Assembly: GCA_030431755.1 (NCBI GenBank)
Contig: JAUIIK010000001.1
Span: forward strand, 42,184 to 106,183
Source: Chloroflexia bacterium
GTDB taxonomy: Bacteria > Chloroflexota > Chloroflexia > Thermomicrobiales > CFX8
Reading direction: 5' to 3'
DNA: 64,000 bases
The notes under the pieces were generated by a model. That model did no database searches. It was not told where the DNA came from and saw only the letters and a list, made by a program, of their open reading frames with translations. This document shows positions 30,254-61,259 of the stretch, one piece after another. The translations under genes were made by a program, and so were the position numbers. Position 1 is the stretch's first letter, and each line of letters opens with the position of its first letter.

Positions 30254-30363
30254 CGTCCCTATCCGTTGAACGCTCCGCCACCTGCGCCACCAGCCAACGC
30301 AGCGAGGCCAGCATCATTCGATGACAATACGCACGTTCTGTAATAGTAATACAGTGCATACGA

Positions 30364-36175: not shown

Positions 36176-37046
36176 AGTCAGTCCCCAACATTCGGTAGAG
36201 ACGCTGGTTGGCGTCTCGAAAGCGCTCCGCGAGTAGCTCCCGCCGCTCCGGTTTCAACTTCGGATACTTGTATGATTTGTGCCCGTGGTATGGCTCCGGT
36301 TGCCAGTCGTCCAGCTCCAGGAAGGCCGCGACCCGCCGCAGCGAGCCAGCGGGATCGCGGAAGAACGCCTCCGACTGGAGCACCAGCAGCTGGTCGTCGC
36401 CGAAGTGCTCCGTCCACCACGGGAGTTGGTCGGCGTAGTAGCCGCGTGAGAGATATGAGAAGTGGTTGCGGGCGAAGCTGAAGTAGCCAGGGTCCGCCAG
36501 CACCTTCTTGGTCTCGCCAGCCAGGCGCTCCGGCTCGCGCTCAAACGCCTCTGATACCGGCAGCGACTCGAAACCCAGCCGGACCTCGTGGTGATAGTGC
36601 GAGAGTGCCCGGTCAATCGGGTTCCGCAGCAGCGCGATCAGCTTGACGCCGGGTAGTTCACGGGCAATTCTGGCGGGCGCATGCGGGTAATAGATGTAGC
36701 CGCTGGCTTCGCCGCTAATGATCCCGGCTTCTCGCGCGTCGTCGGGAAAGTTGGCCCGGTACCAGTCAAGACCTTTCCCGTAACGGCGGTGGAAGTAGTG
36801 GATCTCGCCGTCGTTCAACGACTCGAACAGACAGGCCTTGACCTGCGGGTGCTCGATCAGGCGATCGTAGAGATAGGTCGTCCCGCACTTCTGGCCGCCG
36901 ATGACGATGAACGCCGGCGCGGTACCGGTCTTACCCGCCGCCATCCGCGCGGAGAGCGCCGCATCCAGCACCGTCTCACGCTGGCGCAGGATGCCTCGCT
37001 TGACTCCGGGCGGAAGCGTCCGGACGGCGATCTCGCGAATCTGCAC
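36159..37046 (-). CDS. Sulfotransferase (Sulfotransfer_1-like)
   Basis: 5'-PSB motif FIVIGGQKCGTTYLYDRL and 3'-PB motif LIALLRNPIDRALSHY. GTG start 17 nt after the sat-cysC stop. Confidence 0.85.
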   Translation of the reverse strand: MQIREIAVRTLPPGVKRGILRQRETVLDAALSARMAAGKTGTAPAFIVIGGQKCGTTYLYDRLIEHPQVKACLFESLNDGEIHYFHRRYGKGLDWYRANFPDDAREAGIISGEASGYIYYPHAPARIARELPGVKLIALLRNPIDRALSHYHHEVRLGFESLPVSEAFEREPERLAGETKKVLADPGYFSFARNHFSYLSRGYYADQLPWWTEHFGDDQLLVLQSEAFFRDPAGSLRRVAAFLELDDWQPEPYHGHKSYKYPKLKPERRELLAERFRDANQRLYRMLGTDYDWDA

Positions 37047-37063
37047 GTCGTCCTCGCCCTCGC

Positions 37064-39968
<2,905 letters not shown>

Positions 39969-39969
<1 letters not shown>

Positions 39970-40829
39970 CAACCAGTCCCGAGGTCGGACTCGAAGGCGG
40001 GCGACGTGCTCTGTGCAAGCCGCACCGCCTCTGGGCCACGGCGCAGCCGCCGCGCTTGTGAGCGGAGCAAGGCGTTGATCTCGCCCATTACCCGGTTCCG
40101 GTCATCCAGCTCGGAATGCTCCGGAATCGGCGTATGGCGCTCGTGCCAGATCGTGCGCAGCACGCGCAAGCCGTCGGGAATCGTCTTGAGACGGCCCTCG
40201 CCATAGACCCGCTTCGCTTCAAAGCTCGGCACCTCAGCGATTTGCAGCCCGGCACGGAGCGCTCGGACGTTCATCATCGTCTCGATTTCGAAGCCATCGC
40301 CGTTGAGTTGCAGCAGATGCGTTGTCGAGGTCCAGAAGGCGTTGTAGCCGTAGCAGAGATCGGAGAAGCGCCCGCCATAGAGCAACCGCACAAAGTAGAC
40401 GAAGGCGAGGTTTCCGAACTGCCGGTAGCGCGGCATGTCCGCCGTACCGCCGCCGTGCAGGAAGCGCGAGCCTTTGGCGAAGTCCGCGCCGGCCAGCAAC
40501 GCGCCGACATACTGCGGGATCTCGCGCGGATCGGTCGAGCCGTCGGCGTCGAGCATCACGATGATGTCGCCGGTGACAGCCTCGAAGCCCGCCCGCAGCG
40601 CGTCGCCCTTGCCTTTGCCGGGTTGTTGGACTACACGGATGTCGGGTAGGAGCTGCCTTGCGACGGAGATCGTATCGTCGACTGAATGGCCGTCGATCAG
40701 AATGACTTCATGAACGCCGTCGGGAATGTGTGGCAGGACGTAAGGCAGGTTCTCAGCTTCGTTGAGCGCCGGGATAACGACACTTACGCGGCATCGTGGT
40801 GGCCAGATGCCGGTCTCATACGCGGCCAT
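39969..40829 (-). CDS. Glycosyltransferase family 2 (polyprenol-phosphate glycosyltransferase-like)
   Basis: VSVVIPALNEAENLPYVL..VHEVILIDGHSVDDT and MLDADGS motifs. ATG 40829 is preceded by AAGGAAG, so it is preferred over 40880. Confidence 0.8.
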
Positions 40830-40961
40830 GCGCGCTTCCTTTCCCCTTGACCGTGGCAGCGAGCAATGGGGCTCCCACATACCAACTTGCTCGCCATGCA
40901 GACCGATCAGTGCGAGGCAAGCGTTGAACCCAGACCCCTGTCCTTGCCCCAGATGGTCAGT

Positions 40962-45910: not shown

Positions 45911-47299
45911 CTAGCCGTTGGTTGCGCCGGGCATTCGGATCTCGGCGCAGTCGCCGAGAATGTCGATGCATGTCCCGAACGGCGCTGAAAGCCGCGCAAC
46001 GTCGGACAGTATTTCCCGGGCCTCGTCGCCTGTCGCGAGCGCGGGCCGTCCACGCCTTTGGGGCGCGTCATGCTGGCCGAGAGAAACCGGGAGAAGCTCA
46101 ACGCGGTTCAGGTTGTCCCCTGCGAAGTCGCAGATGGGCACGACCGTCTGCCAGTACCGCCGGTCGGCAACGAAGCCGCCAGCGCCACCCTTGTTACGGC
46201 TCCGTGCCATCTCGGCGGGGGTAGCGGCTGGGTCGAGTCGGAATTTCTCATACGCGTCAGCCGGGTGCTTGTAGATCAGGTCATGCTGATCGATGAAGTT
46301 GCCAAGACTGTAGAAGATCGGCTTGCCGCGATAGATCTCGATTCCGCGGAGCAGATGCGGTCCGTGTCCTGCGATCACATCTGCGCCCTCGTCAATCATG
46401 CGCTGGGAGAACTCCCGGATGAAAGCTGCGGGCTCCTCCTTCGTGTCACCCGGCTCGTGTGCGTGGAGGCTAACGAGGACGAGATCGGCCCGCCGGCGTG
46501 CATCACGGACCCAGGCGGCGAGCTGCTCGACATCGCGCTCATTCAGCACGCGCTCCGTAGCCGGCGTGTCTCCAGCCTTGAAGTGCATGCCTCCGAAGGG
46601 GAAGCGGCCCGGATCGTCTGGCGGGAAGCTGAACCCGAGTTCGATGCCATCCTTCCGGCGCTTTTCGAATCCCAGCTCCTCGGCCATCGTCTGGATAACC
46701 GCCAGCTGATCCGGCTTGATCCGGTACGTTGTCGTGAAGCGCAGTGGGTTGATGCCCGGGCGTCCCTGCATGTCGGGGCGTTGCTCGCCGGCTTGCTGCC
46801 CGCGCTTGAACGTCGAGCAACAGGCGATCAGCGCGACCGCGCCGCGCGGGCTGTCGTAGTAGGCCGGCATGCGTGCCTCGCCGAGATTCCGTCCAACCCC
46901 GGCATATGCAACGCGCCGCTGTTCGAGCGCATCAATCATCGCGAGCAACCCCTCGATGCTGTAGTCCAGGGAATGGTTGGTCGCAGTAGCGAAGAGATCG
47001 AAACCCATCGCGATGAGCTCGTCGAGCACCCAGCTATGCCCGGCCATGTGATCGCCGCCAGTTTCCTGGGCTGGGTAACCCTGGAAGTTGTTGGCCAGCA
47101 CTTCGAGGTTGGTGAAGGTAACGTCCGCGGCACGCAAACGCTCGACCAGGTCTTGCACCGCTTGTTCAGTTGAGCCGGCAATGCCGCCGCGCATGATCGC
47201 GCTGTCGCCGGTCAACGCAATTGACAGGCTTCTCTGATTGTCCTCCAAAATCGCCCTCTTTGCTGCTGCAGTTCTTTGCCCTGTATCACTGGAATACAC
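45911..47299 (-). CDS. CapA/PGA_cap family metallophosphatase-like protein
   Basis: 462 aa with IALTGDSAIMRG, FTNLEVL, ATNHSLDYSIEGL, SLHAHEP and GHGPHLLRGIE motifs characteristic of CapA-type proteins. Confidence 0.8.
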   Translation of the reverse strand: MYSSDTGQRTAAAKRAILEDNQRSLSIALTGDSAIMRGGIAGSTEQAVQDLVERLRAADVTFTNLEVLANNFQGYPAQETGGDHMAGHSWVLDELIAMGFDLFATATNHSLDYSIEGLLAMIDALEQRRVAYAGVGRNLGEARMPAYYDSPRGAVALIACCSTFKRGQQAGEQRPDMQGRPGINPLRFTTTYRIKPDQLAVIQTMAEELGFEKRRKDGIELGFSFPPDDPGRFPFGGMHFKAGDTPATERVLNERDVEQLAAWVRDARRRADLVLVSLHAHEPGDTKEEPAAFIREFSQRMIDEGADVIAGHGPHLLRGIEIYRGKPIFYSLGNFIDQHDLIYKHPADAYEKFRLDPAATPAEMARSRNKGGAGGFVADRRYWQTVVPICDFAGDNLNRVELLPVSLGQHDAPQRRGRPALATGDEAREILSDVARLSAPFGTCIDILGDCAEIRMPGATNG

Positions 47300-48223: not shown

Positions 48224-49169
48224 TCATAGAGCTTGTCCATCATCGAAGGCGTAGCCACAGTGCTGAAACCAACCGCGCGCATCTTGGACGGTGATCCGAT
48301 CAAGCCCTTGCGCGATCGCTTCCCAGAGCCCCTCGACCGCGCGTTGGTTGGCTCGTCGAAGATGGGCTTTGAGTTTGGAAAAGAGCTGCTCGATGGGGTT
48401 GAAGTCCGGCGAGTAGGGCGGTAAAGGGAGCACCCGACATTCGGCGGCCTCGATGAGCACTACGGCATCGCTACTCTTATGCACACTGAGGTTATCCCAG
48501 ATGACAATCTGCCCCGCACGCAATTGCGGGACGAGGAATTGGGCGATGAACTGATCGAAGACGGGCCGGTCCATGGCCCATTCAATGACCACCGCCGTCT
48601 CGACACCACCAAGGGTCATGGCCGCCATCACTGTCGTGTTCTTGCCCCAGTTGCGCGGCACCTGGCCGATGCAGCGCGCTCCGCGTGGAGCCCGGCCGTA
48701 GCGTGGCGTCAACGTGATGTTGGCGCCACTCTCATCGACAAAGATCAACTGCTCTGCGGCAACACCCTCGATCTCAGCCCACCAGGCAGTGCGTGCTTCT
48801 GGATCCTGTTCGCTGGCGATCAGCCGCTTTTTTTCGCGTCAATTCCAGCCGCTGCAGCGTGCGGCACATGGTCGCGGCACTGACCCTGACCCCGCTGACT
48901 CCCATCCACTGATGGCAGTAGTCGCTCAGGGTGGCATCGGCGCTGGCACGCACCAGGGCTGTCAGCGCCGCATGCTGGTCGGCTGGGATCAGCGGCGGGC
49001 GTCCCGGGCTGGTGCGCGCCACAACCGAGCCTTCCGCACGCCACTGCTGGCGATAGCGCCGCACAGTGCGGGCCGAGACGGCGAACCGCCGCGCGACCTC
49101 TGCCACCGTCTGCCCCAACTCCAGAGCGGCGATGATCCGTTCACGGAGATCCGGACTGTAGGCACGCAT
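48224..49169 (-). CDS. IS630 family transposase; the HTH part (49169-48774) and DDE part (to 48224) lie in different frames that meet at an A7 run
   Basis: N-terminal part MRAYSPDLRERIIAALELGQTVAEVARRF.. . After CGAAAAAAAG the +1 frame continues ..KKRLIASEQDPEARTAWWAEIEGVAAEQLIFVDESGANITLTPRYGRAPRG..DNLSVHK..LPPYSPDFNPIE (DDE_3 signature). Confidence 0.8.
48828..48834 (-). other. A7 homopolymer (T7 on the plus strand) at the transposase frame junction; candidate +1 recoding or transcriptional-slippage site, or an inactivating indel
   Basis: Read directly: CGA AAA AAA GCG in the orfA frame versus GAA AAA AAG CGG in the orfB frame. Confidence 0.6.
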
Positions 49170-49315
49170 CACCCCTCCTGCCTTTCACCCTGCGTGCCAC
49201 AGTGTCACCGAGGAACAGCCTATTCGCAATAGGGTCTAGTGTTCCGGGGCACGCAGTTTTTCTGCAGTTGGTCCTCGAACTGAGCTAACACAATGTGCGA
49301 TATTGCGTCACCTGT

Positions 49316-50638
49316 TCAGCCTCGGCATGGTAGAGTGAAACTTGCAGTTGTCCCGGTTCCCGGCTCGCTGACGACCCCGATCGTGCCGCCGTGCGCCTCA
49401 GTGATGGCACGCGCAATGGCGAGGCCAAGTCCAGTACCGCCAGTACGCCGCGATCTAGATCGGTCAACTCGATAGAACCGGTCGAATATCCGATGCAAGT
49501 GCTCCGGTGGAATGCCGCTACCGGTATCGGATACCGACACGACGGCTGTCTCACCACCGTTTTCGACGAGTACGTCGACGCTCCCGCCCGCTGGCGTATG
49601 TTTTCGAGCGTTGTCGAGCAGAATGCGAACGACCTGGGCGATTCTTCCTTGGTCGATAGATGCTGTGGCTGCTGAGCGCGCCGCGAACGACAGGCGGATA
49701 CCGGCTGCTTCGAAGATTGGCCGCATCTCGTCGACGGAAGCCGCGACCGTTTCCGACAGATCGCTAGGTTGCGTCTGCAGGTCAAGCGCCTGGCTGTCGA
49801 GCCGCGCGATGAGCAGGAGATCACCGATGAGCCGGTCGATGTGGTCGATCTCCCGCAAGATACTCTTGATCTCTGGCGTGATCGGCTGCGCTTCTTCAGG
49901 CGCTTCCATGAGTGCCATTTCCGCGTTCGCGCGAATGAGCGTCATCGGAGTCCGCAGCTCGTGCGATGCGTCGGCGACGAACTGGCGTTGCCGGTCGAAC
50001 GCAGAATTGATCGGCTGCATTGCGCGACGTGAGAGATAAAAGCCGGCCGGCGCGGCAATCAGGCCGCCGAGTGCAACACCGAGCAGTATCACGCGCCGGA
50101 GCTCTGCCAGTCGCCCGTCCAGCTCGTCAAGACTCCGAATACCTTGGACGGCGCCGACAACTTCGTCGCCACTGTAGACCGGTACCGTAAGTACGCGAAC
50201 TCGATACCCGCCATTGAGTGTCACCGAGCGGACATCGGAGTCGCCAGTCAGCGCGGCCGGTATGCCACCAGCCACCGGCACGTCGTCGAGGTGAATCTCG
50301 CGAGGGTTACCGACGATCCGGCCATCTGAGCCGATGACCATTAGGACGGTATCGCCGGAGCCGATGATTTGCCACTCGCGCTCGTAATCTTCCTCGACAT
50401 TTGGGGGCCGTTCGTCGGTGACTCGTGATGTGTTGGCGAAGAGATCCTCACCTCGAACGAACGCCGCCGGGTCGTCAGGCAGTTCGGCGGACTCGACTCG
50501 CTCGTTGAGCGCCTTGTCCAGCTCCTGGAAGTGGCTGTGTCGCAGCGCGATGTACACGACAGCGCCAACGATCGAAATCAGAAGTATCACAGTTGCCGCG
50601 TTGAGAATGGCGAGCTGGCGTCCGACGCGTGTGAACAT
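49316..50638 (-). CDS. Sensor histidine kinase (two TM segments, periplasmic loop, HAMP, HisKA, HATPase_c)
   Basis: H-box ASHELRTPMT, N-box LLDNARKHT, G1 DTGSGIPPE, G2 GGTGLGLAIARAI. 440 aa. Confidence 0.9.
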   Translation of the reverse strand: MFTRVGRQLAILNAATVILLISIVGAVVYIALRHSHFQELDKALNERVESAELPDDPAAFVRGEDLFANTSRVTDERPPNVEEDYEREWQIIGSGDTVLMVIGSDGRIVGNPREIHLDDVPVAGGIPAALTGDSDVRSVTLNGGYRVRVLTVPVYSGDEVVGAVQGIRSLDELDGRLAELRRVILLGVALGGLIAAPAGFYLSRRAMQPINSAFDRQRQFVADASHELRTPMTLIRANAEMALMEAPEEAQPITPEIKSILREIDHIDRLIGDLLLIARLDSQALDLQTQPSDLSETVAASVDEMRPIFEAAGIRLSFAARSAATASIDQGRIAQVVRILLDNARKHTPAGGSVDVLVENGGETAVVSVSDTGSGIPPEHLHRIFDRFYRVDRSRSRRTGGTGLGLAIARAITEAHGGTIGVVSEPGTGTTASFTLPCRG

Positions 50639-50647
50639 ATGCTGCCC

Positions 50648-51322
50648 TCAATCCGCGCGCAGGCGATATCCGACGCCGCGCACGGTTTCAATCGGAGAGC
50701 CCGGTCCATCGACTTGCAGCTTGCGGCGCAAGTAGTGGATGTAGAGATCGACGACGTTGCCTTCTGGATCGGCGTCGTAGCCCCAGACATGTTCCAGGAT
50801 CTGGTCGCGGGTGAGCGCCTGGTCGGCGTTTCGCAACAAGAACTCGAGCAACGAGAATTCTGTTGGTGTCAACTCCACGGCCCTGCCGCCAACAGAGACC
50901 GAGCGTCTGTGAATATGCATCGCGACGCTCCCGACAGCCAGGACATCCGGCAAGTACCGCTGGCTTGCGCGGCGTGTCAACGCGTGGACGCGCGCAATGA
51001 GCTCCTCGAACGCGAATGGTTTGCCAAGGTAGTCATCGGCGCCGTTTTCCAGCCCCTCGACGCGACGGTCGAGGTCGCGGAGCGCACTGAGAATAAGCAC
51101 CGGCGTATTGACGCCGGCAAGCCGCAACTCATAGCAGATCGATAGACCGTCCATGCCGGGAAGCATGCGATCGAGGATGATCCCGTCGAATGTTCCGGTG
51201 AGCGCTTTCTCAAGCCCTTTATCGCCTGTATGAGCCAGTTCAATGTCAATGCGCTCGCGCTCGAGGGCGCGTCGGATGAGACGTGCCAGCTCGATTTCAT
51301 CTTCGACGACGAGGATACGCAT
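50648..51322 (-). CDS. OmpR/PhoB family response regulator
   Basis: MRILVVEDE.., phospho-acceptor region IILDRMLPGMDG, winged-helix LTPTEFSLLEFLL..VWGY. Confidence 0.93.
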   Translation of the reverse strand: MRILVVEDEIELARLIRRALERERIDIELAHTGDKGLEKALTGTFDGIILDRMLPGMDGLSICYELRLAGVNTPVLILSALRDLDRRVEGLENGADDYLGKPFAFEELIARVHALTRRASQRYLPDVLAVGSVAMHIHRRSVSVGGRAVELTPTEFSLLEFLLRNADQALTRDQILEHVWGYDADPEGNVVDLYIHYLRRKLQVDGPGSPIETVRGVGYRLRAD

Positions 51323-51364
51323 CAGACAAACCCGCCGTCTGACGCCGACGCCATGCTAGCTGGC

Positions 51365-52768
51365 TCAGTCATCATCGTCATCATCGGAGCCTGAGTCACC
51401 GTCATCATCGTCTTCATCATCGCCGCCTGACCCAGGCCCGGAATTGTCGTCGTCCCCACTACCGGAACCGCTCCCTGAGCTGTCATCGTCACTGTCATTG
51501 TCGCCGGATCCGGGTCCCGAGTTGTCATCATCATCGTCGTCATCGTTGCCTGATCCTGGCCCGGAATCATCATCGTCATCTCCGCCGGAACCAGGGCCCG
51601 AGCTGTCATCTTCGTCGCCTGGTCCTTCGCCCGCATCGTTTACACCAACGTCACCGTCGTCGTCCCCGCCGGAGCCGGGTCCGGAGTTGTCATTTTCCTC
51701 ATCGTCATCGTCGTTGGATCCGGGACCTGAGTTGTTCCCATCGGAATTGTCATCGTCGCCCTCGCCAGAGCCAGGTCCGGAGCTATCATCCTCGTCGCCA
51801 TTGCCATCGCCATCGTCGCCTGGTCCCGGCCCGGAGCTGTCGCCTTCATGGTCGCCGTTCTCATTGGAGCCGAGCTCTGCGTCATCCCCGTCGCTATCGT
51901 CATCGCGGCCTGACCCGGGCCCGGAACTGTCGTCATCTCCCCCGCTGGAACCGCTCCCGGAATCGTCGTCCTCGTCGTTGTCATCGTCAGTGGATCCAGG
52001 GCCAGAGTTATCTCTCTCCTCGGAGCCGGGACCGGAATCATCGTGGTCACCGTCGCTAACCCGGGCGCCACTGTCGTCGTCGCCGGATCCCGAGATGTCC
52101 TCACGCTCGTCATCGACGTCATCTGAACCCGGACCGGAGTTGTGCTCTTCCGGCTCATCATTGCTGCTCCCGTTTCCTGCCGGGCCCGGATCTTCCTCAC
52201 GGTCGTCGTCATCGGCGCCTGACCCTGGTCCAAAGCTGTCGTCATCTTGGGCCACCGTTCCGGGTGTGCCGTCGTCGCCGTCACCCGGTCCCGAGCCGCT
52301 TGCGGGTTCCTGCTCGGTTTCGCCGCTGGGCTCAGCATTGTCATCGCGATCGTCTTCGTCACGCGCCAATCCGAACGAGCTCGCGGGGGATGGGTTCGGA
52401 GGTTGGGCGCCACGCGAATCGGCTGGAAGCTGAAGGTCACCACTGTCGTCACCCGGCGGCGCGGTCGCATGGATGTTTTCTCCGTCGAGTCGCTTCGTTG
52501 CCAGGCCAGTTGACGCGCCGGAGCGTGCGATTGTGTCAATTTTCGCAGCTGCCGCGGTTGGGGAAGCAAGCGCCACGTCTCCATTGGCCGCCTCATCCGC
52601 GTCGTCACCGGCGTCATCTACAAGTTCGCCGGCATTGAGGCGCGCGAGCGGATTGAACCGGTCCAGATCGAGCACCGGATAGATCATGAGGCTGATCACC
52701 AATAGGACGGCAGCCATCCATGATGTCGATAGTGCCCAGACCGGCAGTCTTTGCCGCACTCGAACCAT
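51365..52768 (-). CDS. Membrane-anchored, extremely acidic low-complexity protein with about a dozen (D/E/N)n-S-G-P-G-S repeats
   Basis: N-terminal hydrophobic anchor (LPVWALSTSWMAAVLLVISLMIYPVL). GAGGGA Shine-Dalgarno before the ATG. The C-terminal ~300 aa are Asp-rich blocks separated by SGPGS/SGSGS. Lies 42 nt upstream of the RR-HK pair on the same strand. Confidence 0.7.
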   Translation of the reverse strand: MVRVRQRLPVWALSTSWMAAVLLVISLMIYPVLDLDRFNPLARLNAGELVDDAGDDADEAANGDVALASPTAAAAKIDTIARSGASTGLATKRLDGENIHATAPPGDDSGDLQLPADSRGAQPPNPSPASSFGLARDEDDRDDNAEPSGETEQEPASGSGPGDGDDGTPGTVAQDDDSFGPGSGADDDDREEDPGPAGNGSSNDEPEEHNSGPGSDDVDDEREDISGSGDDDSGARVSDGDHDDSGPGSEERDNSGPGSTDDDNDEDDDSGSGSSGGDDDSSGPGSGRDDDSDGDDAELGSNENGDHEGDSSGPGPGDDGDGNGDEDDSSGPGSGEGDDDNSDGNNSGPGSNDDDDEENDNSGPGSGGDDDGDVGVNDAGEGPGDEDDSSGPGSGGDDDDDSGPGSGNDDDDDDDNSGPGSGDNDSDDDSSGSGSGSGDDDNSGPGSGGDDEDDDDGDSGSDDDDDD

Positions 52769-52841
52769 GCGTATCCCTCGCTTCAGCCACCTGCGGTCAG
52801 TTACGTCCGATCCATCCTACGTGCGACAGATTGGAGTTACA

Positions 52842-53927
52842 TTAGAATCCACTTCCGGTTCCTGAAAGCGGCCCGGCAAGCCGTTCTTCGACAAGTTCCA
52901 GGAGCATTCCGGTCGCGCTCTCACGGCCTGCAATCTGACTGCTGAGTGAGACGTGACGCGCAAGCGTTAGCGTCTTCGTGATCTCCACATCAGCGGCGGA
53001 AATCCTCCCGGACTGTACGTCGATTGACCGCTCAATAAAAGTCTGTTCGGTTCTCTCAAGGTACGGAGTTCCAGGTGACGCGCGTACCCGCAGCTCACTG
53101 AGGTGCCCAGCGAAGTTGCCGACGTCAATCGCCGCGGGTCCACGAGAGTACAGGTCGACGTCGAGGATCCAGACCCTGCTCCCGTCGATGAGCACATTGT
53201 CCTGGTAGAAATCACGGTGGAGACCGACCGTCGGAGCATCGCTCAAGCCGGATGCTACCTGGCGGCATTGCTCGAACACACTTCCCAGTCGTTCGCTGAG
53301 CTCCGGTCGCACGGTCGACAAGCTGCGGAAGCGCTCCTCCAGGATTGCGAGTTCGTGTGGAACTGCGTGCCGTCGTGTGCAGCCGGCGGCGCACGCGTGA
53401 AAGACGGCCAGCGCCTCGGCTACCCGTCGCGCCACGATGTCACCGTTCGTGCCGGTCAGGGCGATCTCCGCAGGTACACCTGGGACTCGATGTTGGAGCC
53501 ACATGTGAAAGGCAGGGATATAGCCGGCAACGGGAGGGACCGAGACGCCATGACGGCTACTTGGCCCAAGCCCGAGGCTGGCGAGCCGGTACTGGATGCC
53601 GTAGGCATGGCTGTCCAAGCCCTTTGCGCGGACTTTGCCGATGAGAGCGATTGAGCGCGAGCCGCGCCATGGCGCGCTGATCTGCAAGCCGTACTCGATG
53701 AGGCAGCGCCGGCCCGGTTTGTGTCGAATGACCCGAATCGACGAGAGCCCGCAATGGTTTGCACAGCGTCCGAGGGGGCCGGTCGGCTGCGTTAGCGCCG
53801 CCAATGCTGTACGAGGGTCGAGGGCCGGCTTGAGGAACTGAAATGCTGGATCGTTGCGTACTCCGGCCGAGTCTTCAACCGTCGCGGCCGGCACTAGCGT
53901 TTCCTGTTCGGAGATGTCACGAGACAA
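52842..53927 (-). CDS. Phosphotransferase (APH / kinase-like fold) family protein
   Basis: Catalytic loop LHRDFYQDNVLIDGSRVWILDVDL..AIDVGNFAGHL. 361 aa. Confidence 0.7.
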   Translation of the reverse strand: MSRDISEQETLVPAATVEDSAGVRNDPAFQFLKPALDPRTALAALTQPTGPLGRCANHCGLSSIRVIRHKPGRRCLIEYGLQISAPWRGSRSIALIGKVRAKGLDSHAYGIQYRLASLGLGPSSRHGVSVPPVAGYIPAFHMWLQHRVPGVPAEIALTGTNGDIVARRVAEALAVFHACAAGCTRRHAVPHELAILEERFRSLSTVRPELSERLGSVFEQCRQVASGLSDAPTVGLHRDFYQDNVLIDGSRVWILDVDLYSRGPAAIDVGNFAGHLSELRVRASPGTPYLERTEQTFIERSIDVQSGRISAADVEITKTLTLARHVSLSSQIAGRESATGMLLELVEERLAGPLSGTGSGF

Positions 53928-55207
53928 CGGCGATCCATGAGCCTGGATACGCGTTGCAGACCCTGATCGATCCGATGATGCCAGTCCGGGTCACGCCGCC
54001 GGAAGTGATGCACCAGCAAGCCGAACAGACCGGCAGCACGATAGATCTGGATCTCGCGACGATCCACCACTCCTCCGGCCGCGACGTACGCAGTCACCAG
54101 TTGCTCCTCGGCATCATCTGCAAAGTCGGGAGACCACCCGAGCCAGTAGCTGTTCCGGTCAAGATGCGCAAGGAATAGGCCAAGATCTTCGGCTGGATCT
54201 CCTCGACCGGCTTCATCAAGATCGATCAGCCCGATGCCCCGGCCACGCAATAGCACCTGTTTTGGGTGGAGATCACCGTGTACGAGTGCCGTTCCAACCG
54301 GGAGCGCCGGCAGCGTGGCTAGCAGCCGTGACGTTACCTGCTCCACCTGTTGCGTCAGAGAGGGCGCAAGCCAGCTGATCATGTTCGCGTTTGCGATGGT
54401 CTTGTTGGCGAGGTCGGACGGAAGCCGCTGCGGCATGCCTGATGTGTCCTGCGCGTGGAATATGGCAAGGCCATGTGCCAGGGCGTCAATCCACTGCTCA
54501 TGCTCCGGGGCGGCCGGCAACACGGATGCGAGCGATACGCCGTTCAGCCAGTCCAGAGCCAGCGCACTCCGGCGCCGCGTCTTGCCCAGGTGTTGAGGCA
54601 GTGTCAGCTCGGACTCTGAGGCCGTTGGCGTGCGTTTCGATCGACCGATCTCGTAGTCGGTACTCCGGTAGATACGCACCACGACCCGGCGCCCAGCGCT
54701 ATTTGAGACCAGCCCGACGAACCTGCGCTCCGGCTTGTAGTTCAACTCCTCTACGCTCCACTGACCCTGTGACGCATCCGAGCCGAGCAAGCGGCGCATG
54801 ATCTGGCTTCGCCGGTGAGGAAGCAGCAATTGAGGAAGCCCTTTGAGCTTGTTATCCAGCGGCGTGAAGACGAGTTCCGTCGAGTGGTCCCGCAGTAACA
54901 GACGACCGGGATACTCGCGATGCCCACTGTCGGAGGGATGGCGTGGCATCCCGAGCTTGGCTGCAGCATCGTCACGATAGGCCTTTGCGTAGCCTGTTAG
55001 CTCCTGGCCGCCGGACTGTATCCGGAACCTGCAGAGGCAGTTCATGCCTGGCTTGTAGCGTGTGTAGTCGACGCGCAGTTCGTCCACTCCGAGATCCGGG
55101 ACTGCCCGGCGCACACGGTCCGCCAGTTCGGCGCTGTCGAGCACAAGCGCGAGTCCACGCAGCTGGGAGTCGCGCGCGCAGAGGATCGCCTCAGTCTGAG
55201 GCAACAT
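53894..55207 (-). CDS. Phosphotransferase (APH / kinase-like fold) family protein
   Basis: Catalytic loop LVHGDLHPKQVLLRGRGIGLIDLDEAGRGDPAEDLG. ATG 55207 is preceded by GGAGGAA, so it is preferred over 55273. Confidence 0.7.
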   Translation of the reverse strand: MLPQTEAILCARDSQLRGLALVLDSAELADRVRRAVPDLGVDELRVDYTRYKPGMNCLCRFRIQSGGQELTGYAKAYRDDAAAKLGMPRHPSDSGHREYPGRLLLRDHSTELVFTPLDNKLKGLPQLLLPHRRSQIMRRLLGSDASQGQWSVEELNYKPERRFVGLVSNSAGRRVVVRIYRSTDYEIGRSKRTPTASESELTLPQHLGKTRRRSALALDWLNGVSLASVLPAAPEHEQWIDALAHGLAIFHAQDTSGMPQRLPSDLANKTIANANMISWLAPSLTQQVEQVTSRLLATLPALPVGTALVHGDLHPKQVLLRGRGIGLIDLDEAGRGDPAEDLGLFLAHLDRNSYWLGWSPDFADDAEEQLVTAYVAAGGVVDRREIQIYRAAGLFGLLVHHFRRRDPDWHHRIDQGLQRVSRLMDRRCLVTSPNRKR

Positions 55208-57008
55208 ACTCGTTCCTCCGGTCATGGGTGGTGGTGTGCACCGCGGATAAGCGTGCGTAGCGACCGCCGGCATCGATCAAGCTTGCGTGTGTGCCGCGTT
55301 CTACGATCTCACCGTTCTCGATGTACAGAATGTAGTCAGCGCGGGATGCGAAGGCGAGGTCGTGTGTTACAAGCACCGTCGTGGTGTGCTCGGAGAGACG
55401 TTTCAGCGCGTTGATCACTGATTGCTCATTTGCCTCGTCGAGACCGGTCGTTGGCTCGTCCAAGACGAGAATCGGCGCTTGCCGGACGGCGGCGCGCGCA
55501 ATCGACAGGCGCTGCCGCTGGCCGCCGGACAAGGTCGTACCGCGTTCGCCGAGTACCGTCTCGTAACCATGTGGGAGATCGCCGATGAAGAGATGGGCGT
55601 TGGCCAGGCGCGCCGCCGCGACAATGTCCGCTGCTGTCGAGTCGGGACGCCCATACGCAATGTTGTCGCGCACCGACGCTGCGAACAGCAGGGTCTCCTG
55701 CATAACAACGCTCATCTGCCGGCGGAGGGACTCGACCTTGTAGCTACGAATGTCTCGCCCGTCGATCTCGATCCCGCCGTCGGTCGGATCATACAGGCGC
55801 AGCAGAAGACTGGCGATGGTCGATTTCCCGTGGCCCGATGGACCGATCAGCGCGACCGTCTGACCAGGCTGGATCGTGAACGAGATGTTGCGCAGGACCG
55901 GATGTTGAGGATCGTACCCAAATGACACATTTCGGAACGCAATCTCGCCCAGAAATGGCGGCGCGTCGATTGCCCCCGCAGTGTCCTTGATGTCTGGTGT
56001 GCGCTCGAAGACGTCAAGCACGCGTTCGCCGGCCGCCGACGCCTTGGCCAATCGCCCGGTGTACTTGGCGTAGCTCTGAATCGGCCGGTAGGAAGACTTG
56101 AGGTAGGAGAGAAAGACCAGCAGTTCGCCGGCTGTCAGCGCGCCTTGCAGTACCAGGCGGACCCCGTACCAGAGCACGAGAGCGGAACCGCAGGCTGTCA
56201 GCACGTCAACAGACCGTTCAAGGCGTGCCTCCAGCCGCTTCGCTCGCACCGACTCCGCCTGACTCCGGTTGTTCTGCCGCGCGAACTGATTGCCAAACGT
56301 GTCTTCGAGCGACAGTGCCTGGACAGTCCGAATCGCGCTGATTGCTTCCGCCGCGGTTGCGGCGACTGCGCCTTCACGTTGTCGCTGCTTGCGCGACACC
56401 TGGCTAATCCGCTTGCTGAGCCGGATCGAGCGAATCAGGAACAGCGGGAGCACAGACGCCGCGAGGAGTGCGAGTTGCCAGTTAAGCCAGAAGGTGACCG
56501 AGAGCATGCCAACGAGGATGAGCGCATTTGCGATCAGCGGCAGGACCGCCGTGACCGTCACATCCTTGAGCATTCCGATGTCACCAATAACCCGAATGGT
56601 GAGATCGCCGGTGCGTGTACTGTCGTGATAGGAGAGCGAGAGGCGTTGCATGTGATGGTAGAGGTCCGCGCGAACAGCAGTGAGTACGCGATTCCCAACG
56701 AGCGCCATCCCAATCGTGCTCGCGTACGATGTAACTGCCCGTAGTAAGGCGACGACCACGACCGCGCCAGCCATCAGTGTGAGCCAGACAAGTTGGTTGT
56801 CGACTTCCTCTCCGGCCGGTGGGCTGATCAGGCGGTCGAAGACGAACTTGAGTGGCCACGGCTCGAGCAATCGAAATCCAACCTGCGCCAGCAAGGCAAC
56901 GAAGGAGCCGCCGAGGAGCATCTTGTGCTGTCGGATGTAAGGCCAGAACGCTCTGACGAACCGGAACAGGCCAGGTAGCGCGGCAGCGATGGACGATGTC
57001 CGCGCCAT
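55191..57008 (-). CDS. ABC exporter, fused permease/ATPase (MsbA/type IV exporter-like)
   Basis: Six-TM N-domain. Walker A GPSGHGKST, signature LSGGQRQRLSIARA, Walker B ILVLDEPT. ATG 57008 lies 1 nt after the upstream stop. Confidence 0.9.
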   Translation of the reverse strand: MARTSSIAAALPGLFRFVRAFWPYIRQHKMLLGGSFVALLAQVGFRLLEPWPLKFVFDRLISPPAGEEVDNQLVWLTLMAGAVVVVALLRAVTSYASTIGMALVGNRVLTAVRADLYHHMQRLSLSYHDSTRTGDLTIRVIGDIGMLKDVTVTAVLPLIANALILVGMLSVTFWLNWQLALLAASVLPLFLIRSIRLSKRISQVSRKQRQREGAVAATAAEAISAIRTVQALSLEDTFGNQFARQNNRSQAESVRAKRLEARLERSVDVLTACGSALVLWYGVRLVLQGALTAGELLVFLSYLKSSYRPIQSYAKYTGRLAKASAAGERVLDVFERTPDIKDTAGAIDAPPFLGEIAFRNVSFGYDPQHPVLRNISFTIQPGQTVALIGPSGHGKSTIASLLLRLYDPTDGGIEIDGRDIRSYKVESLRRQMSVVMQETLLFAASVRDNIAYGRPDSTAADIVAAARLANAHLFIGDLPHGYETVLGERGTTLSGGQRQRLSIARAAVRQAPILVLDEPTTGLDEANEQSVINALKRLSEHTTTVLVTHDLAFASRADYILYIENGEIVERGTHASLIDAGGRYARLSAVHTTTHDRRNEYVASD

Positions 57009-57009
57009 C

Positions 57010-58188
57010 TCAAACTGACACTTCTCGCGGCTGGGCAGCTTCGAATGCCGCGGCAACGACCCGGTCAACGATCGCGTCCCACGTGTATTGCCGGACGGCC
57101 GCGGCGCGCGCGCTCGTGCCAAGGCGGGCGCGAAGCCCCGAGTCACCTGCCAGCCTCACTAATGTGAGCGCCAGGTTGTCGGCATCGCCCGGGCGGCTGA
57201 GCAAGCCTCGTTCGCCGTCCTGGATGATTTCCGGGATCTGGCCGGTTGCGCTCGCGACGACCGGCAAGCCCGCGGCCATGTATTCGAAGATCTTGAGCGG
57301 CGAAAAGTAGAAACCTGGGATCGTGTCGTACGGGGCGACGCCGATGTCCATCGAAGTCAACATCCCCGGCATGCGCTCCGGGTCAACGGGGCCCACGAGC
57401 CGCACGACCTGATCGAGCTCAGCAGTCTGGACGGTTGATTCAATCTCTTGCCGGAGCGGACCGTCCCCAACAATCAGCAGCCGCAGTGCGGGACACTTCC
57501 GACTTGCGATCTTGAACCCATCGATGAGCGTGAGCAAGCCGTGCCAGCGTTTCATCGAGCCGGCAAAACCTACGGTGATCGTCCCTGGCTGCCGCGCAAT
57601 CATCGGAGGTATGTCGGGACTGAAGCGGGTAGGGTCTACGCCGTTTGGCTCAATATGTATGTGTTCCGCCGGCGCGTCCCGCTGTCTGACATAGTCAGCT
57701 ACTGCGTCCGAGACGACGACAATATGACTCGATGCCACGAAGGCCCGTCGGGCAACACCTTCGGCCAGCTCGCGGTCGGCCAGTTCGCGGTAGGTTGCCT
57801 GCTCTTCGATTAGTGGCGCGTTGACCTCCAGTACGCGAGGGATACCCGCCACGCGGCCGAACTCCATTGCCGCGGCGCTCCACAGTGAGTGGCGCTCGTA
57901 GATCAGGTCGAATGGCGTTCCCTTCATCAGCGCTCCCCGTATCGCGTCATTGAGCAGACTTATCGTGCGCTCCCGCGCGATCGGGGAGGACGAAGAGAGC
58001 TCGGGGAGTTGCGTGACGGAGACCGCATCAAGTCCACGTCGTACCGGACCGCCCAGAGAGGCGGCGATTAGCTCGACCTGCCAGCCACGTTTGACGAAGG
58101 TCCTTAGCACTTCCTGAACGTGGATCGAGCAGCCCTTGTGGCCGAACACCGGCACTCCAGCGTCGGCGCAGACGTATGCGATTTTCAC
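57010..58188 (-). CDS. Glycosyltransferase family 4 (GT-B)
   Basis: VKIAYVCADAGVPVFGHKGCSIHVQEV.. N-terminus and YFSPLKIFEYMAAGLPVVASATGQIPEII motif. GTG 58188 forms a GTGA overlap with the upstream stop. The Arg/Pro-rich 116-aa extension to 58536 is rejected. Confidence 0.85.
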   Translation of the reverse strand: MKIAYVCADAGVPVFGHKGCSIHVQEVLRTFVKRGWQVELIAASLGGPVRRGLDAVSVTQLPELSSSSPIARERTISLLNDAIRGALMKGTPFDLIYERHSLWSAAAMEFGRVAGIPRVLEVNAPLIEEQATYRELADRELAEGVARRAFVASSHIVVVSDAVADYVRQRDAPAEHIHIEPNGVDPTRFSPDIPPMIARQPGTITVGFAGSMKRWHGLLTLIDGFKIASRKCPALRLLIVGDGPLRQEIESTVQTAELDQVVRLVGPVDPERMPGMLTSMDIGVAPYDTIPGFYFSPLKIFEYMAAGLPVVASATGQIPEIIQDGERGLLSRPGDADNLALTLVRLAGDSGLRARLGTSARAAAVRQYTWDAIVDRVVAAAFEAAQPREVSV

Positions 58189-59420
58189 GACACCGCTCCC
58201 GCCAGCGCGCATTCGCGGTGCCAGGCATTCACGGCCCTGACAGTGAAGAGCTTCCGAACCCGAGCGGCGTTCTGGAGAATGTTGAAATCGGATTCGACGC
58301 GCATCCTGGCATTCTGCGCGAGCCGTTGCCGGAGGGCGGGATCTTCGAGGAGGCGCTTGAGTGCCGCCGCCAGCTCGAATGGATCTTCGGGCGGGACGAG
58401 TAGGCCGCCTTCGCCATGCCGGATCATCTCCGGGATCCCGGTGAGCTGTGTGGAGACGCACGCCGTTCCAAGTGCCATCGCTTCCAGCAGTACCGTGGGC
58501 AGGCCGTCCCTGTTGCCGTCGCGGGCCAGGCGGCACGGAGCGGCAAACAGGCTCGCGCGCGCGACACGGTGCTTGACCTCGGCCTGCGGCAACGGGCCGG
58601 CGAGCGTAACCTTGCTTGAAAGCCCAGCGCGCTCAATGTGCTCAGCAAGGGCAGGTCGAAGCTCGCCGTCGCCGACGATGTCGCAGGTGAACTCGACACC
58701 ATCGCGAGCCAGCAGGTCACAGGCGTCAATAAGTATGTCGAATCCCTTTTTCTCGACCAGCCTGCCGACAGCCACGAGCTTTGCAGTCTCTCTGTGGTCC
58801 GCGCTGAAGTGGAATGCGTCGAGATCGAGGCCGTTGTAGATCCGGCGCACGCTTCGAGCATCGGGGCCGAATTGCTGCCTGAGGTAGTCCGCATTGAAAT
58901 CGCTGACGGTGACTACGGCCGTCGCGTCAGCCATCTTGCGGCGGAGATCCTCCGGTTCGACTGTCTCGTGGTAGATGTCTTTGGCATGGGCTGTGAAGCT
59001 ATAAGGCACTCCGGACATCATTGCCGCAAGGCGGGTGACCGTCGTCGCGACGCTCGCAAAATGCGCGTGGAGATGGGTGATACCGCGTTCGCGCACCTCC
59101 GCAGCGATGATCGCGGCCTGGTAGACATCCAGTGCCCGCACACCCTGTGCCGCCGCGAATGCTTCAGAGTACCGGCGTGGGCTGTCACCAGCTGCCTGAG
59201 CAAGAGCAGCCCAGAGCGCATCGCCTCCAATCTTGCCTGCCGGGACGTAGGTCACACCGGCCTTGACTCGGGCGAGAACATCCTGAAAATGCGTGTCGGC
59301 GGGCGGCCGCAATGAGAAGATGTCGATGTCGAGCCCAGATGCCTCATGCGCCAGAATCTCGCTGACGACAAAGGTCTCGGAGTAGCGCGGGTACCGCTTG
59401 ACAACATAGCCAACTCGCAT
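58185..59420 (-). CDS. Glycosyltransferase family 4 (WcaL-like)
   Basis: MRVGYVVKRYPRYSETFVVSEILAHEASG.. N-terminus typical of WcaL-type GT4 enzymes. C-terminal DGLPTVLLEAMALGTACVSTQLTGIPEMI. Confidence 0.85.
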   Translation of the reverse strand: MRVGYVVKRYPRYSETFVVSEILAHEASGLDIDIFSLRPPADTHFQDVLARVKAGVTYVPAGKIGGDALWAALAQAAGDSPRRYSEAFAAAQGVRALDVYQAAIIAAEVRERGITHLHAHFASVATTVTRLAAMMSGVPYSFTAHAKDIYHETVEPEDLRRKMADATAVVTVSDFNADYLRQQFGPDARSVRRIYNGLDLDAFHFSADHRETAKLVAVGRLVEKKGFDILIDACDLLARDGVEFTCDIVGDGELRPALAEHIERAGLSSKVTLAGPLPQAEVKHRVARASLFAAPCRLARDGNRDGLPTVLLEAMALGTACVSTQLTGIPEMIRHGEGGLLVPPEDPFELAAALKRLLEDPALRQRLAQNARMRVESDFNILQNAARVRKLFTVRAVNAWHRECALAGAVS

Positions 59421-59421
59421 G

Positions 59422-60714
59422 TCAGTCTCCCGATATTCGTGTATCAGCGTGGATGGCGTGTGGGGCATTCGAAATCAGATCGTTGAGAAAGACCGGGATC
59501 TTCGTAAGCCCTGCCAAGTCGAGGGCTTCAAACGCGCGGGGACGGTCGGCCGATGTGTCTGCCAGCCAGGCTTCAAGCGCGTCCGGCGAGAGGTCGGCCG
59601 GGTGAAGCATGTCAACCAGCCCTCGTTCGCTCAGTCGAGTGGCACGCAGTAATTGCTCTCGACGCGGCGTGGTTCGCGGAACGATCAAGGCGGATGCGCC
59701 ATAGGACAGCACCTCGCCTACTGCGTTGTAGCCGCCCATCGAGATGACCCGGTCGGCGGCTTCGATCAGTGACGCCGGCTCGGACACGAAGCCGAGGACA
59801 TCGAGGTCATTTCGTCCGCTTGCGAGTCTGGCGATGTCGTTTGCAGTTTCAGCCGGCATGTACGGTCCAGTCAGCAGCACTCCGGCTGCATCGGACGGGA
59901 AGCGCGTTGCAGCGAACGCTGTGGCGAGCGTGCCGCCATCCTGGCCGCCTCCGACAAGACAGAGAAGCAGGCGTTGGCCTGATGATCGAATTTTCTCGAC
60001 CAGACTGGCGACGCGTTCGTCGGGAACCCGGGGACGTGATTGCTGATCCAGGTACCCGGTGAACCGGACAATGCTTCGCACGTTTGCGAGGAACTTGTAC
60101 TCCCGCGTTGCGTCGTAGACAGCCCTGTCGCCGTAGATCCAGATGGCGTCGTAGACCGATTGGACCAACCTGTCCGCTCCCGTTTTCCTCCACTCTGCCT
60201 CAATGACGGCTGGAGCGTCCAGGATGTCCCGCAAGCCAAGAACGATCTTTGTCACCCCTTCCTGGCGAAGACGGTTGAGTGCTGGTAGCAGTTCACCGCC
60301 CGCGCCGGCCGGTACGTTGTCGACGATCAGCACGTCGGGCCGAAAGCTCTCCAGTGCGGAACTGATGATCGCTGAACGCAGCGCGATCAACGAGTCGAAT
60401 GAGCAGGTCAGCCGCCGCGCGGTGTAGGACCCTGCGCCGTTCTTGTAGAGCGAGGGCAGGGTGACGAGGTCTGTCCCAGCCGGCAGCTTGAATGAGCGAG
60501 TCTCGAGCGCGCCCGAGAGGAGCAGAATCGAACATCCGTGAACGTGGTTGGAAATTGCCTGCGCGATAAGTAAGTTGCGGCGAGTGTGCCCGAGTCCCTG
60601 GGAGTCGTGCGCGTACATCGCAATTCGTGGGGCTCTGCCGCCATGCGCAACGTTCCACGCTCCGGGGCCGAACCTCGTCGTACCGAACATCTCCGTGACG
60701 TTGAATGTGCTCAT
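59422..60714 (-). CDS. GT-B glycosyltransferase, MurG/GT28-like (COG4671-type, recalled from memory)
   Basis: RIAMYAHDSQGLGHTRRNLLIAQAI N-terminal motif and C-terminal ..RVISMGGYNAVGEVLSYGASALIVPR. 430 aa. Start codon uncertain because no SD is seen. Confidence 0.65.
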   Translation of the reverse strand: MSTFNVTEMFGTTRFGPGAWNVAHGGRAPRIAMYAHDSQGLGHTRRNLLIAQAISNHVHGCSILLLSGALETRSFKLPAGTDLVTLPSLYKNGAGSYTARRLTCSFDSLIALRSAIISSALESFRPDVLIVDNVPAGAGGELLPALNRLRQEGVTKIVLGLRDILDAPAVIEAEWRKTGADRLVQSVYDAIWIYGDRAVYDATREYKFLANVRSIVRFTGYLDQQSRPRVPDERVASLVEKIRSSGQRLLLCLVGGGQDGGTLATAFAATRFPSDAAGVLLTGPYMPAETANDIARLASGRNDLDVLGFVSEPASLIEAADRVISMGGYNAVGEVLSYGASALIVPRTTPRREQLLRATRLSERGLVDMLHPADLSPDALEAWLADTSADRPRAFEALDLAGLTKIPVFLNDLISNAPHAIHADTRISGD

Positions 60715-60992: not shown

Positions 60993-61259
60993 ATGCGTAA
61001 GAGCTGCTACAGCGAGGAGCAGATCATCGATATCCTGCGGGAGCATGAAGCGGGCGCCAGCGTCACCGACCTGAGTCGCCGGCACGGGGTTAGTCAGTTG
61101 ACGATCTACCGCTGGAAACAGAAGTATGACGGGTTGGAACTCTCCGAGCTCAAGCGGCTGAAAGCGCTTGAGGCGGAGAATGCCCGGCTGAAGAAGCTCG
61201 TGGCAGACCAGGCCTTTGACAACCAGATGCTCAAGGAGTTGCTCGGAAAAAAGTGGTGA
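60993..61259 (+). CDS. IS3 family transposase OrfA (HTH)
   Basis: MRKSCYSEEQIIDILREHEAGASVTDLSRRHGVSQLTIYRWKQKY..LKALEAENARLKKLVADQ is a canonical IS3-family OrfA with a leucine zipper. Confidence 0.85.
   Translation: MRKSCYSEEQIIDILREHEAGASVTDLSRRHGVSQLTIYRWKQKYDGLELSELKRLKALEAENARLKKLVADQAFDNQMLKELLGKKW

Follow-up and report, generated by a model that had tools for sequence, protein, structure and literature searches.

A polyacidic SGPGS-repeat membrane protein beside an OmpR-type two-component system in a Chloroflexia bacterium: a candidate extracytoplasmic sensory antenna

A stretch of 64,000 nucleotides from a Chloroflexia bacterium (GenBank assembly GCA_030431755.1, contig JAUIIK010000001.1, positions 42,184 to 106,183 of the forward strand; hereafter the window, with positions counted from its first nucleotide) contains a gene for a polyacidic SGPGS-repeat membrane protein, located directly upstream of the genes for a response regulator and a sensor histidine kinase (HK). 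We favour, at about even chances, the reading that this protein is an extracytoplasmic, disordered and polyanionic antenna that serves as an accessory to the adjacent kinase. Its acidic (N/S)SGPGSG tail, which is absent from the curated libraries and the full-text literature that we searched and so defines an undescribed group, recurs in other bacterial loci next to signalling genes.

The coding sequence (51365..52768, minus strand) begins with ATG, ends with a stop codon at 51365-51367 and is preceded, 5 nt 5' of the ATG, by a Shine-Dalgarno-like GAGGGA (52774..52779, minus). A first-pass annotation, made by a model from the sequence, had described a 467-amino-acid (aa) open reading frame (ORF) at this position with its own Shine-Dalgarno sequence and on the same strand as the response regulator gene; all of these features are present, and the strand, which it had left unstated, is the minus strand. 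The protein is composed of 25.3% D, 18.4% G, 13.7% S, 7.1% P and 6.0% E, with about 146 acidic residues and no Cys. It can be divided into a signal-anchor or transmembrane (TM) helix, PVWALSTSWMAAVLLVISLMIYP, at aa 9-31 (52676..52744, minus), which is preceded by the basic residues MVRVRQR, a non-repetitive Ala/Asp/Pro-rich linker at aa 32-150 (52319..52675, minus) with a net charge of -16, and a polyanionic repeat tail at aa 151-467 (51368..52318, minus) with a net charge of -116 and a terminal DDDDDD.

The tail of 317 aa consists of 31% D, 24% G, 16% S and 7% E and contains 12 exact copies of GPGS, 11 of them as SGPGS, all within aa 180-447. By composition, only 0.18 +/- 0.42 copies of GPGS and 0.03 of SGPGS are expected, and the highest count in 2000 composition-preserving shuffles of the tail was 2. 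The units follow the consensus [DE]-D-D-[NS]-S-G-P-G-S-G-x-D-D-D-D and are irregularly spaced, at distances of 10-48 aa. The architecture outlined in the first-pass annotation, with a single N-terminal anchor, a tail of about 300 aa rich in D, E and N, about twelve GPGS units and a DDDDDD end, is thus borne out.

The codons of the repeat indicate that it is maintained as a peptide. Across the 12 G-P-G-S units, codon positions 1 and 2 are fixed (entropy 0), whereas position 3 has an entropy of 1.3-2.0 bits and runs through GGA, GGT, GGC and GGG for Gly, CCA, CCC, CCG and CCT for Pro, and TCC, TCA, TCT and TCG for Ser; the Ser that precedes GPGS is replaced by Phe (TTT) in one unit. Such a pattern is indicative of purifying selection that acts, in this reading frame, on the motif as a peptide. 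Tandem Repeats Finder detected only short imperfect arrays with 69-76% matching in the gene, which together with the codon-position evidence leads us to reject a simple-sequence or slippage artefact at the DNA level. Three long ORFs overlap at the locus, the other two being a Ser/Pro-rich ORF of 329 aa on the plus strand (51444-52433) and a Thr/Met-rich ORF of 325 aa on the minus strand (51640-52617). Both have no start context and poorer codon-usage log-odds (-0.25 and -0.07) than the acidic frame, which scored best at +0.14, and we attribute these shadow ORFs to the repetitive codons of the acidic gene; they could mislead gene callers. The acidic ORF is therefore a real gene under protein-level selection, and the possibility raised in the first-pass annotation that the repeat is non-coding simple sequence is contradicted by the synonymous scrambling around a constant peptide motif.

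Kyte-Doolittle windows above 1.6 are confined to aa 8-38 of the protein, which thus has a single hydrophobic segment, with 8 aa before it. The flanking charges are +3 on the N-terminal side and -7 on the C-terminal side, and the net charge beyond the TM segment is about -131. By the positive-inside rule, this pattern would leave the 8-aa N-terminus cytoplasmic and put the other 435 aa or so outside, so that the protein is probably a type-II (N-in, C-out) single-pass membrane protein. A motif scan near the N-terminal hydrophobic region identified no lipobox, no twin-arginine translocation (Tat) motif and no AxA site, which together with the hydrophobic stretch of about 23 aa makes an uncleaved signal-anchor most likely; a lipoprotein and a cleaved Sec- or Tat-secreted protein were rejected on the same grounds. 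A transmembrane anti-sigma factor was also rejected, given that just 8 residues precede the TM segment and that the neighbours are a response regulator and an HK with no sigma gene, as was a protein of the staphylococcal SD-repeat/MSCRAMM type, given that it contains neither an (SD)3 run nor an LPXTG-like motif.

The single-sequence AlphaFold2 (AF2) model of the acidic protein contains one helix, at aa 14-29, and otherwise two 2-residue strand marks. Apart from scattered residues, the predicted local distance difference test (pLDDT) score is <50 throughout the protein beyond about aa 58, with values of 32-47 in the tail; the linker likewise has a pLDDT <50 and is modelled with no secondary structure. 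From composition and the AF2 model, the approximately 435 aa beyond the TM segment are predicted to be intrinsically disordered. The features expected of an extracytoplasmic sensory intrinsically disordered region (IDR), namely a polar and charged composition, a pLDDT <50 and a positive-inside pattern, agree with one another, topology and disorder both being predicted. The first-pass annotation had suggested predicting disorder and topology as a check, and both the charge pattern and the AF2 model fit an extracytoplasmic disordered tail.

Homology searches yielded very little outside the tail. The acidic protein matched no Pfam or NCBIfam family at E <= 0.01. A word-index search with the full protein gave two matches with E ~1e-3 (P0001 and P0002) and an exhaustive phmmer search of 1.84 billion cluster representatives gave one (P0001, E = 2.7e-4), in each case to the tail only. 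The N-terminal 156 aa produced zero matches in the word-index search, and no homologue of the linker was obtained in any search made. The exact sequences of the acidic protein, the response regulator and the HK had no record in the assembly index. Searches with the HK against GTDB species genomes and JGI metagenomes identified only distant kinases of <=43% identity, similar mainly in the catalytic core, none of which had an acidic or motif-containing ORF nearby. As judged from sequence comparison, the acidic protein and its two-component system (TCS) are orphans in the available data. A full-text literature search for SGPGS and SGPGSG returned unrelated linkers and peptides only, and the remark in the first-pass annotation that no characterised family has this repeat still holds.

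To collect further proteins with similar tails, we built a profile from an alignment of three tails, those of the window protein, P0001 and P0002, the latter two of which end in DNSGPGSGGDD repeats. The profile retrieved 11 more proteins, all of them small and with an N-terminal signal or TM segment followed by the same repeat units, of the type DDNSGPGSGDD; the sole named relative comes from an Actinobacteria metagenome-assembled genome. We defined the group by an anchor or signal followed, towards the C-terminus, by at least two acid-flanked [NSH]SG[PRSH]G[SGN] units. The window protein has 13 motif matches beyond the TM segment, and the other members are 19 proteins or ORFs from 11 loci. 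Besides the proteins retrieved by the profile, a motif scan revealed tail-bearing ORFs clustered in loci L081, L082, L084, L086, L088 and L091. In several loci, a single regulator is surrounded by two or three distinct tail proteins. No ORF with at least two motifs was found in 160 HK-centred control loci (1.11 Mb + 0.85 Mb = 1.96 Mb). No N-terminal similarity was found among the tail proteins.

Three classes of signalling hardware carry the tail: TCS accessories, proteins in the position of anti-sigma factors, and fusions to extracytoplasmic function (ECF) sigma factors. The gene for the single-pass protein P0001 (L081) is in the anti-sigma position, with an overlap onto the 3' end of an ECF sigma gene, and so is that for its orthologue P0011 (L084 and L085), with conserved synteny. 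P0002 (L082) is itself an ECF sigma-TM-tail fusion, and P0010 (L089) is encoded 14 nt upstream of a 505-aa ECF sigma factor that has C-terminal DDHSGPGGG units after a TM segment. Among the loci with TCS genes, P0004 (L083) is located 56 nt downstream of a HisKA_3 kinase gene and P0013 (L086) abuts a NarL-type response regulator/HK pair. P0008 (L088) is followed on the same strand by a 121-aa ORF, an OmpR-type response regulator and a HAMP-containing HK, which is the layout of the window, and P0006 (L091) lies between an OmpR-type response regulator, with a 1-nt overlap, and the N-terminus of a HAMP-containing HK. P0012 (L092), an SGSGS variant and among the weakest matches, has no signalling neighbour within its contig of 5.8 kb.

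To quantify this association, we took P0001 and P0011 as one and excluded the window, which left eight contexts. A TCS or ECF gene was located within two positions of the tail gene or fused to it in seven of the eight, and was immediately adjacent or fused in six. With a base rate of 3/51 genes (5.9%), estimated from genes at least 3 positions away on the same contigs, the probability of such counts by chance is ~1.4e-4 and 5e-5, respectively; a conservative base rate of 10% yields ~3e-3 and 9e-4. The sample is small, the base rate is rough and the family evidence comes from about ten loci; a chance association between the tail and signalling genes is unlikely. The first-pass annotation had connected the protein with the adjacent sensor system, and this connection is strengthened by the recurrence of the same acidic tail beside or fused to TCS and ECF sigma genes elsewhere, with the limitation that the likeness is at the level of the tail motif and not that of orthologues.

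P0001 and P0011 illustrate how the tail evolves. The two proteins are 31% identical over the first 170 aa, their sigma partners are 62% identical, and their loci share the synteny of Ldh, Icd, citrate synthase, FolD, MFS and PurH genes. Exact (S/N)SGPGSG units are kept in both, 8 in P0001 and 4 in P0011. The number of units can therefore change, whereas the unit itself and the acidity persist. The tail follows a hydrophobic segment in all tail proteins, so that the same location outside the membrane is expected for each, and it is at or near the C-terminus in every one except P0013. Related loci also include His-rich variants, such as HDNSGHGSGHDNDDD and DDHSGRGHDGDDDHDDDHHDDDDDHDDD. The tail protein in L088 (5001-8289) lies beside a weakly cupredoxin-like ORF of 121 aa, the neighbour of that in L086 (923-2123) is a secreted His/Asp-rich ORF, also of 121 aa, that contains DDHSGRGHDGDDDHDDDHHDDDDDHDDDHDDD, and a small Cys-loop motif stands before or after the repeats, as CDEAEHANDPRC in P0003, P0007, P0008 and P0009 and as CDDPGDILEHPEC in L086. 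The Cys-loop, His/Asp-rich and cupredoxin-like items look like metal-binding features.

The response regulator downstream of the acidic gene is an OmpR-family protein of 224 aa (50648..51322, minus) with the Pfam domains Response_reg and Trans_reg_C; its top NCBIfam resemblance is to RppA, well under the equivalog cut-off. It is followed after 9 nt by the HK gene (49316..50638, minus), which encodes 440 aa with two TM segments and the Pfam domains HisKA and HATPase_c. The extracytoplasmic loop of the HK is about 150 aa in size and acidic (net charge -13, isoelectric point about 4.5), and a Pfam scan recognised no sensor domain in it. Between the end of the second TM segment, at about aa 203, and the HisKA match, at aa 217-282, lie approximately 13 aa, which leave no room for a HAMP domain. 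The gap of 42 nt between the acidic gene and the response regulator gene (51323..51364, minus), also reported in the first-pass annotation, contains a weak 5-bp GC hairpin (51333-51350, minus) followed by GGTTTGTCTG, which is no stronger than chance matches and could attenuate read-through into the TCS genes. Around the acidic gene, 3 terminator-like sites were found compared with 2.0 +/- 1.5 in shuffled sequences, and the promoter and terminator scans were at chance level. With the same strand, short gaps and no convincing terminator, the three genes are presumably co-transcribed, and the acidic gene is co-oriented and closely spaced with the response regulator and HK genes, as is expected by position of a TCS accessory.

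If the acidic protein is an antenna, it would contribute to signal input for the OmpR/HK pair encoded in the same orientation, and its polyelectrolyte tail would monitor physical and ionic conditions in the envelope. The signal might be divalent cations, cationic compounds or peptides, or the wall and the matrix of anionic glycans. A change in the tail, be it expansion, collapse or binding, could be passed to the HK through contacts of the membrane anchor or the juxtamembrane region; having no cytoplasmic domain, the protein can communicate only through these regions or its ectodomain. We infer both the physical interaction with the HK and the identity of the signal. An input rather than an output role is suggested by the fact that the tail forms the distal extracytoplasmic end of the sigma fusions and of the proteins in anti-sigma position; in the fusions P0002 and the L089 sigma factor, no other domain was recognised outside the membrane. 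The extreme acidity points to an electrostatic variable as that which is read.

A version of the antenna in which cations specifically are sensed is more tentative, and on balance we doubt it. The His-rich variants, the cupredoxin-like ORF and the precedent of compaction in disordered proteins are plausibly compatible, by analogy, with a metal or cation theme. A loose D.[DN].[DNS]G pattern was observed 10 times compared with 4.5 +/- 2.0 in shuffled sequences, a mild excess. Scans of the acidic protein for canonical Ca2+-binding patterns gave no EF-hand (PS00018), no RTX (GGxGxD) and no Excalibur match.

Several observations weigh against the antenna reading in general. The lack of any canonical Ca2+-binding motif is one, the remaining matches being just one DxDxDG and one TSP3-like sequence. 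The HK loop is itself acidic, and direct docking of the tail is thus unlikely without bridging cations. No orthologue of the acidic protein or of the HK was found in any collection searched, so that there is no direct conservation of this pairing, and the context statistic is derived from 8 loci collected with a low-complexity profile, for which E-values are unreliable. The codon usage of the acidic gene is atypical, with a GC content at third codon positions of 0.615 compared with 0.765 for the window and a synonymous score of about 0 compared with 0.14-0.47. Adjacency cannot separate an input role from that of a regulated output, and the reading has been drawn from sequence.

The acidic gene is the seventh in a co-directional run on the minus strand, which in the 5' to 3' direction consists of genes for a GT28-like glycosyltransferase (GT), two GT4 enzymes, an ABC exporter, two APH-fold (kinase-like) proteins, the acidic protein, the response regulator and the HK. 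The part upstream of the acidic gene spans 52842-60714, with short gaps or overlapping genes. The two genes with Pfam APH matches (53894-55273 and 52842-53927, both minus), which lie directly upstream and overlap each other, are tentative companions of the acidic gene; their sequence matches in PDB are weak only, to capreomycin, viomycin and aminoglycoside kinases. A third APH-fold ORF is located at 25894-27531. Locus L091 (1-6177), a metagenomic contig, repeats much of this gene set (APH, OmpR, HK and tail) in a different order: a tail protein of 169 aa, an APH-fold kinase, the response regulator, a tail protein of 159 aa (P0006) and the HK. Its APH-fold gene is translationally coupled to the genes for the response regulator, the tail proteins and the HK, and the product aligns over about 400 aa with the second APH-fold protein of the window at 22% identity. 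The same contig has a PGA_cap gene and a second OmpR-type response regulator alongside, with the start of another membrane protein that is possibly its HK; a PGA_cap gene is also found in the window, at 45911-47299.

An IS630-type transposase, probably split by a frameshift, follows directly after the HK gene (helix-turn-helix part at 48774-49172, DDE_3 part at 48224-48748), and an ORF upstream of the cluster (60993-61259, plus) resembles by eye a fragment of an IS3-family orfA. Despite these flanking insertion sequence fragments, a horizontally acquired island was rejected, since the GC content is flat at 0.60-0.64 between 40 and 64 kb of the window. Rfam and tRNA scans of the window gave no match to a riboswitch or other RNA element. 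A block of glycan genes (23719-40880) contains genes for a Wzm/Wzt ABC-2 transporter with a Wzt_C domain (23719-25864), several GT2 and GT4 enzymes, two sulfotransferases (35177-36175 and 36159-37046) and a bifunctional ATP-sulfurylase/adenosine 5'-phosphosulfate kinase, that is, a 3'-phosphoadenosine 5'-phosphosulfate (PAPS) synthase (37064-38896). A sulfated envelope polysaccharide with strong negative charge is a probable product of the organism. Two very large DUF2298 membrane proteins are encoded at 5087-11847, one of which (1487 aa) has a PMT_2 domain of the GT-C type, similar to ArnT and protein O-mannosyltransferases; these are candidates for glycosyl transfer at the outer face of the membrane.

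These surroundings bear on what the tail might do other than sense. It could be an output of the adjacent TCS rather than an input, an envelope polyanion that serves as a cation reservoir, charge layer or spacer and belongs to the regulon, on the model of teichoic acids or the staphylococcal SD-repeat stalk. We consider this rather unlikely. The great length and enormous negative charge of the tail agree with it, as do the two or three tail proteins per regulator in several related loci, which is the pattern of structural regulon members, and the location of the gene inside a 60-kb stretch of envelope-glycan genes, including those for sulfated glycans, would suit a theme of charge homeostasis. 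However, the tail is part of a transmembrane signalling protein in P0002, the L089 sigma factor and P0001/P0011, which is hard to explain structurally, and the acidic gene precedes the response regulator and HK genes in an operon-like layout, as do known accessory genes. An improbable alternative is that the tail is a carrier of modifications, the serines of its acid-flanked SGxG sites being glycosylated, possibly with chains that are sulfated, or phosphorylated by the products of nearby genes to give an envelope polymer similar to proteoglycans or phosphoproteins. Glycosaminoglycans are attached in eukaryotes at SGxG sites in acidic clusters, and GT4 enzymes add sugars to the SD repeats of staphylococci. 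In the window protein, 20 SGxG sites stand among acidic residues and S/TxxD/E occurs 20 times, and the window supplies GT4, GT2, GT28-like and GT-C (PMT_2/DUF2298) enzymes, Wzm/Wzt, PAPS synthase and two sulfotransferases, along with the APH-fold kinases directly upstream, which are also present in L091. The sulfotransferase genes are nevertheless about 15 kb away in seemingly separate operons, the APH-fold proteins have no signal sequence and are apparently cytoplasmic while the tail is predicted to be outside, and no glycosyltransferase or sulfotransferase genes were found near the other tail-protein loci in the contexts examined.

Taken further, the acidic protein would be the core of a bacterial proteoglycan-like molecule in which the SGxG units are the sites of glycan attachment. 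The chains, possibly sulfated, would be built by the products of the surrounding GT, PAPS-synthase and sulfotransferase genes and exported by Wzm/Wzt, the GT-C (PMT_2/DUF2298) enzymes would transfer glycans outside the membrane, and the adjacent TCS would monitor or control the anionic layer; we regard this as very improbable. Hardly credible at all is the view that this is a rapidly evolving low-complexity ORF with no function, whether as an orphan or as an annotation shadow cast by simple sequence. The gene is indeed an orphan by homology, with atypical codon usage and three overlapping long ORFs, but synonymous scrambling around a constant motif is the opposite of what replication slippage produces, no clean array was detected by Tandem Repeats Finder, the Shine-Dalgarno sequence, start codon and TM anchor are all proper, and the motif is kept in distant proteins and between orthologues.

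Little is understood of how transmembrane sensors perceive the physical condition of the envelope, and to our knowledge the case of a sensor region that is both disordered and extracytoplasmic has been worked out only for RsgI and PBP1 of Bacillus. Extracytoplasmic accessory proteins and IDR modules of transmembrane signalling are of an already known kind; what is new here is the polyanionic, sequence-defined SGPGS variant. In high-GC bacteria, polyacidic (N/S)SGPGSG tails may form a widespread, undescribed module for extracytoplasmic sensing that is common to anti-sigma factors, sigma fusions and the accessories of TCSs. If so, they would offer a portable and testable module for the sensing of cations, cationic antimicrobials and wall state by disordered regions, and would aid the annotation of hypothetical low-complexity ORFs that are now dropped by gene callers and homology filters. 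The window protein, with 13 units and a net charge of about -131, is the most extreme example among those found and hence a good biophysical model.

The proposed antenna can be compared with several known systems. The periplasmic acidic patch of PhoQ senses Mg2+, Ca2+ and cationic peptides, and the mechanism suggested here for the window protein is analogous in that the occupancy of an acidic cluster outside the membrane by divalent cations would set the activity of a kinase; however, the cluster in PhoQ is short and part of the folded PDC domain of the kinase itself, whereas the approximately 146 acidic residues of the window protein are on a separate disordered protein. The SD repeats of the staphylococcal Clf and Sdr proteins are likewise long, acidic, low-complexity repeats that span the envelope, with codon variation that maintains the repeat, and GT4 genes are present in the window. 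The window protein differs from them in having no (SD)n run, no LPXTG and no ligand-binding domain, and in its N-terminal anchor and its link to signalling genes. Acid-rich disordered proteins collapse in a manner that depends on counterion valency (PMC12557392). Asp-rich biomineralisation proteins and acid-rich disordered proteins such as Aspein, AGARP and Starmaker-like proteins share with the window protein an extreme Asp content, disorder and an expected valency-dependent polyelectrolyte behaviour, but belong to the secreted matrix of eukaryotes and have neither a membrane anchor nor an SGPGS unit nor a signalling context.

Closer in gene organisation are the small membrane proteins and lipoproteins that act as TCS accessories, such as SaePQ, LiaF, YycHI, MzrA, CseA and QseG. 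The role of QseG as an accessory has been described (PMC12691602, PMC6075780). Like these proteins, the window protein is encoded in an operon-like unit with a response regulator and an HK, is membrane-anchored with its bulk outside the cytoplasm, and presumably modulates the kinase. The known accessories are folded or polytopic, whereas the window protein is predicted to be disordered, and searches with Pfam, NCBIfam and phmmer gave no sequence similarity to any of them. We know of none among those named that is a polyanionic repeat IDR of >400 aa.

The nearest precedents are the extracytoplasmic IDRs of RsgI and PBP1 in B. subtilis, which the cell requires for the sensing of cell-wall defects; their sequences can be scrambled with function retained, and it is their composition that matters, not the order of residues (Brunet et al. 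2022, PMC9732909). These are also membrane-anchored signalling proteins with a long charged or polar disordered tail outside, a tail that is predicted in our case, and the resemblance to RsgI extends to the occurrence of the same type of tail as in the window on anti-sigma-position proteins and ECF sigma fusions. The RsgI region is not polyacidic, has no conserved unit and acts through cleavage of a SEAL domain and intramembrane proteolysis, whereas the window protein, in which neither a cytoplasmic nor a folded domain is present, is paired with a TCS and retains SGPGS as an exact unit. The retention of this unit suggests that the window tail, unlike that of RsgI, is under some sequence-specific constraint.

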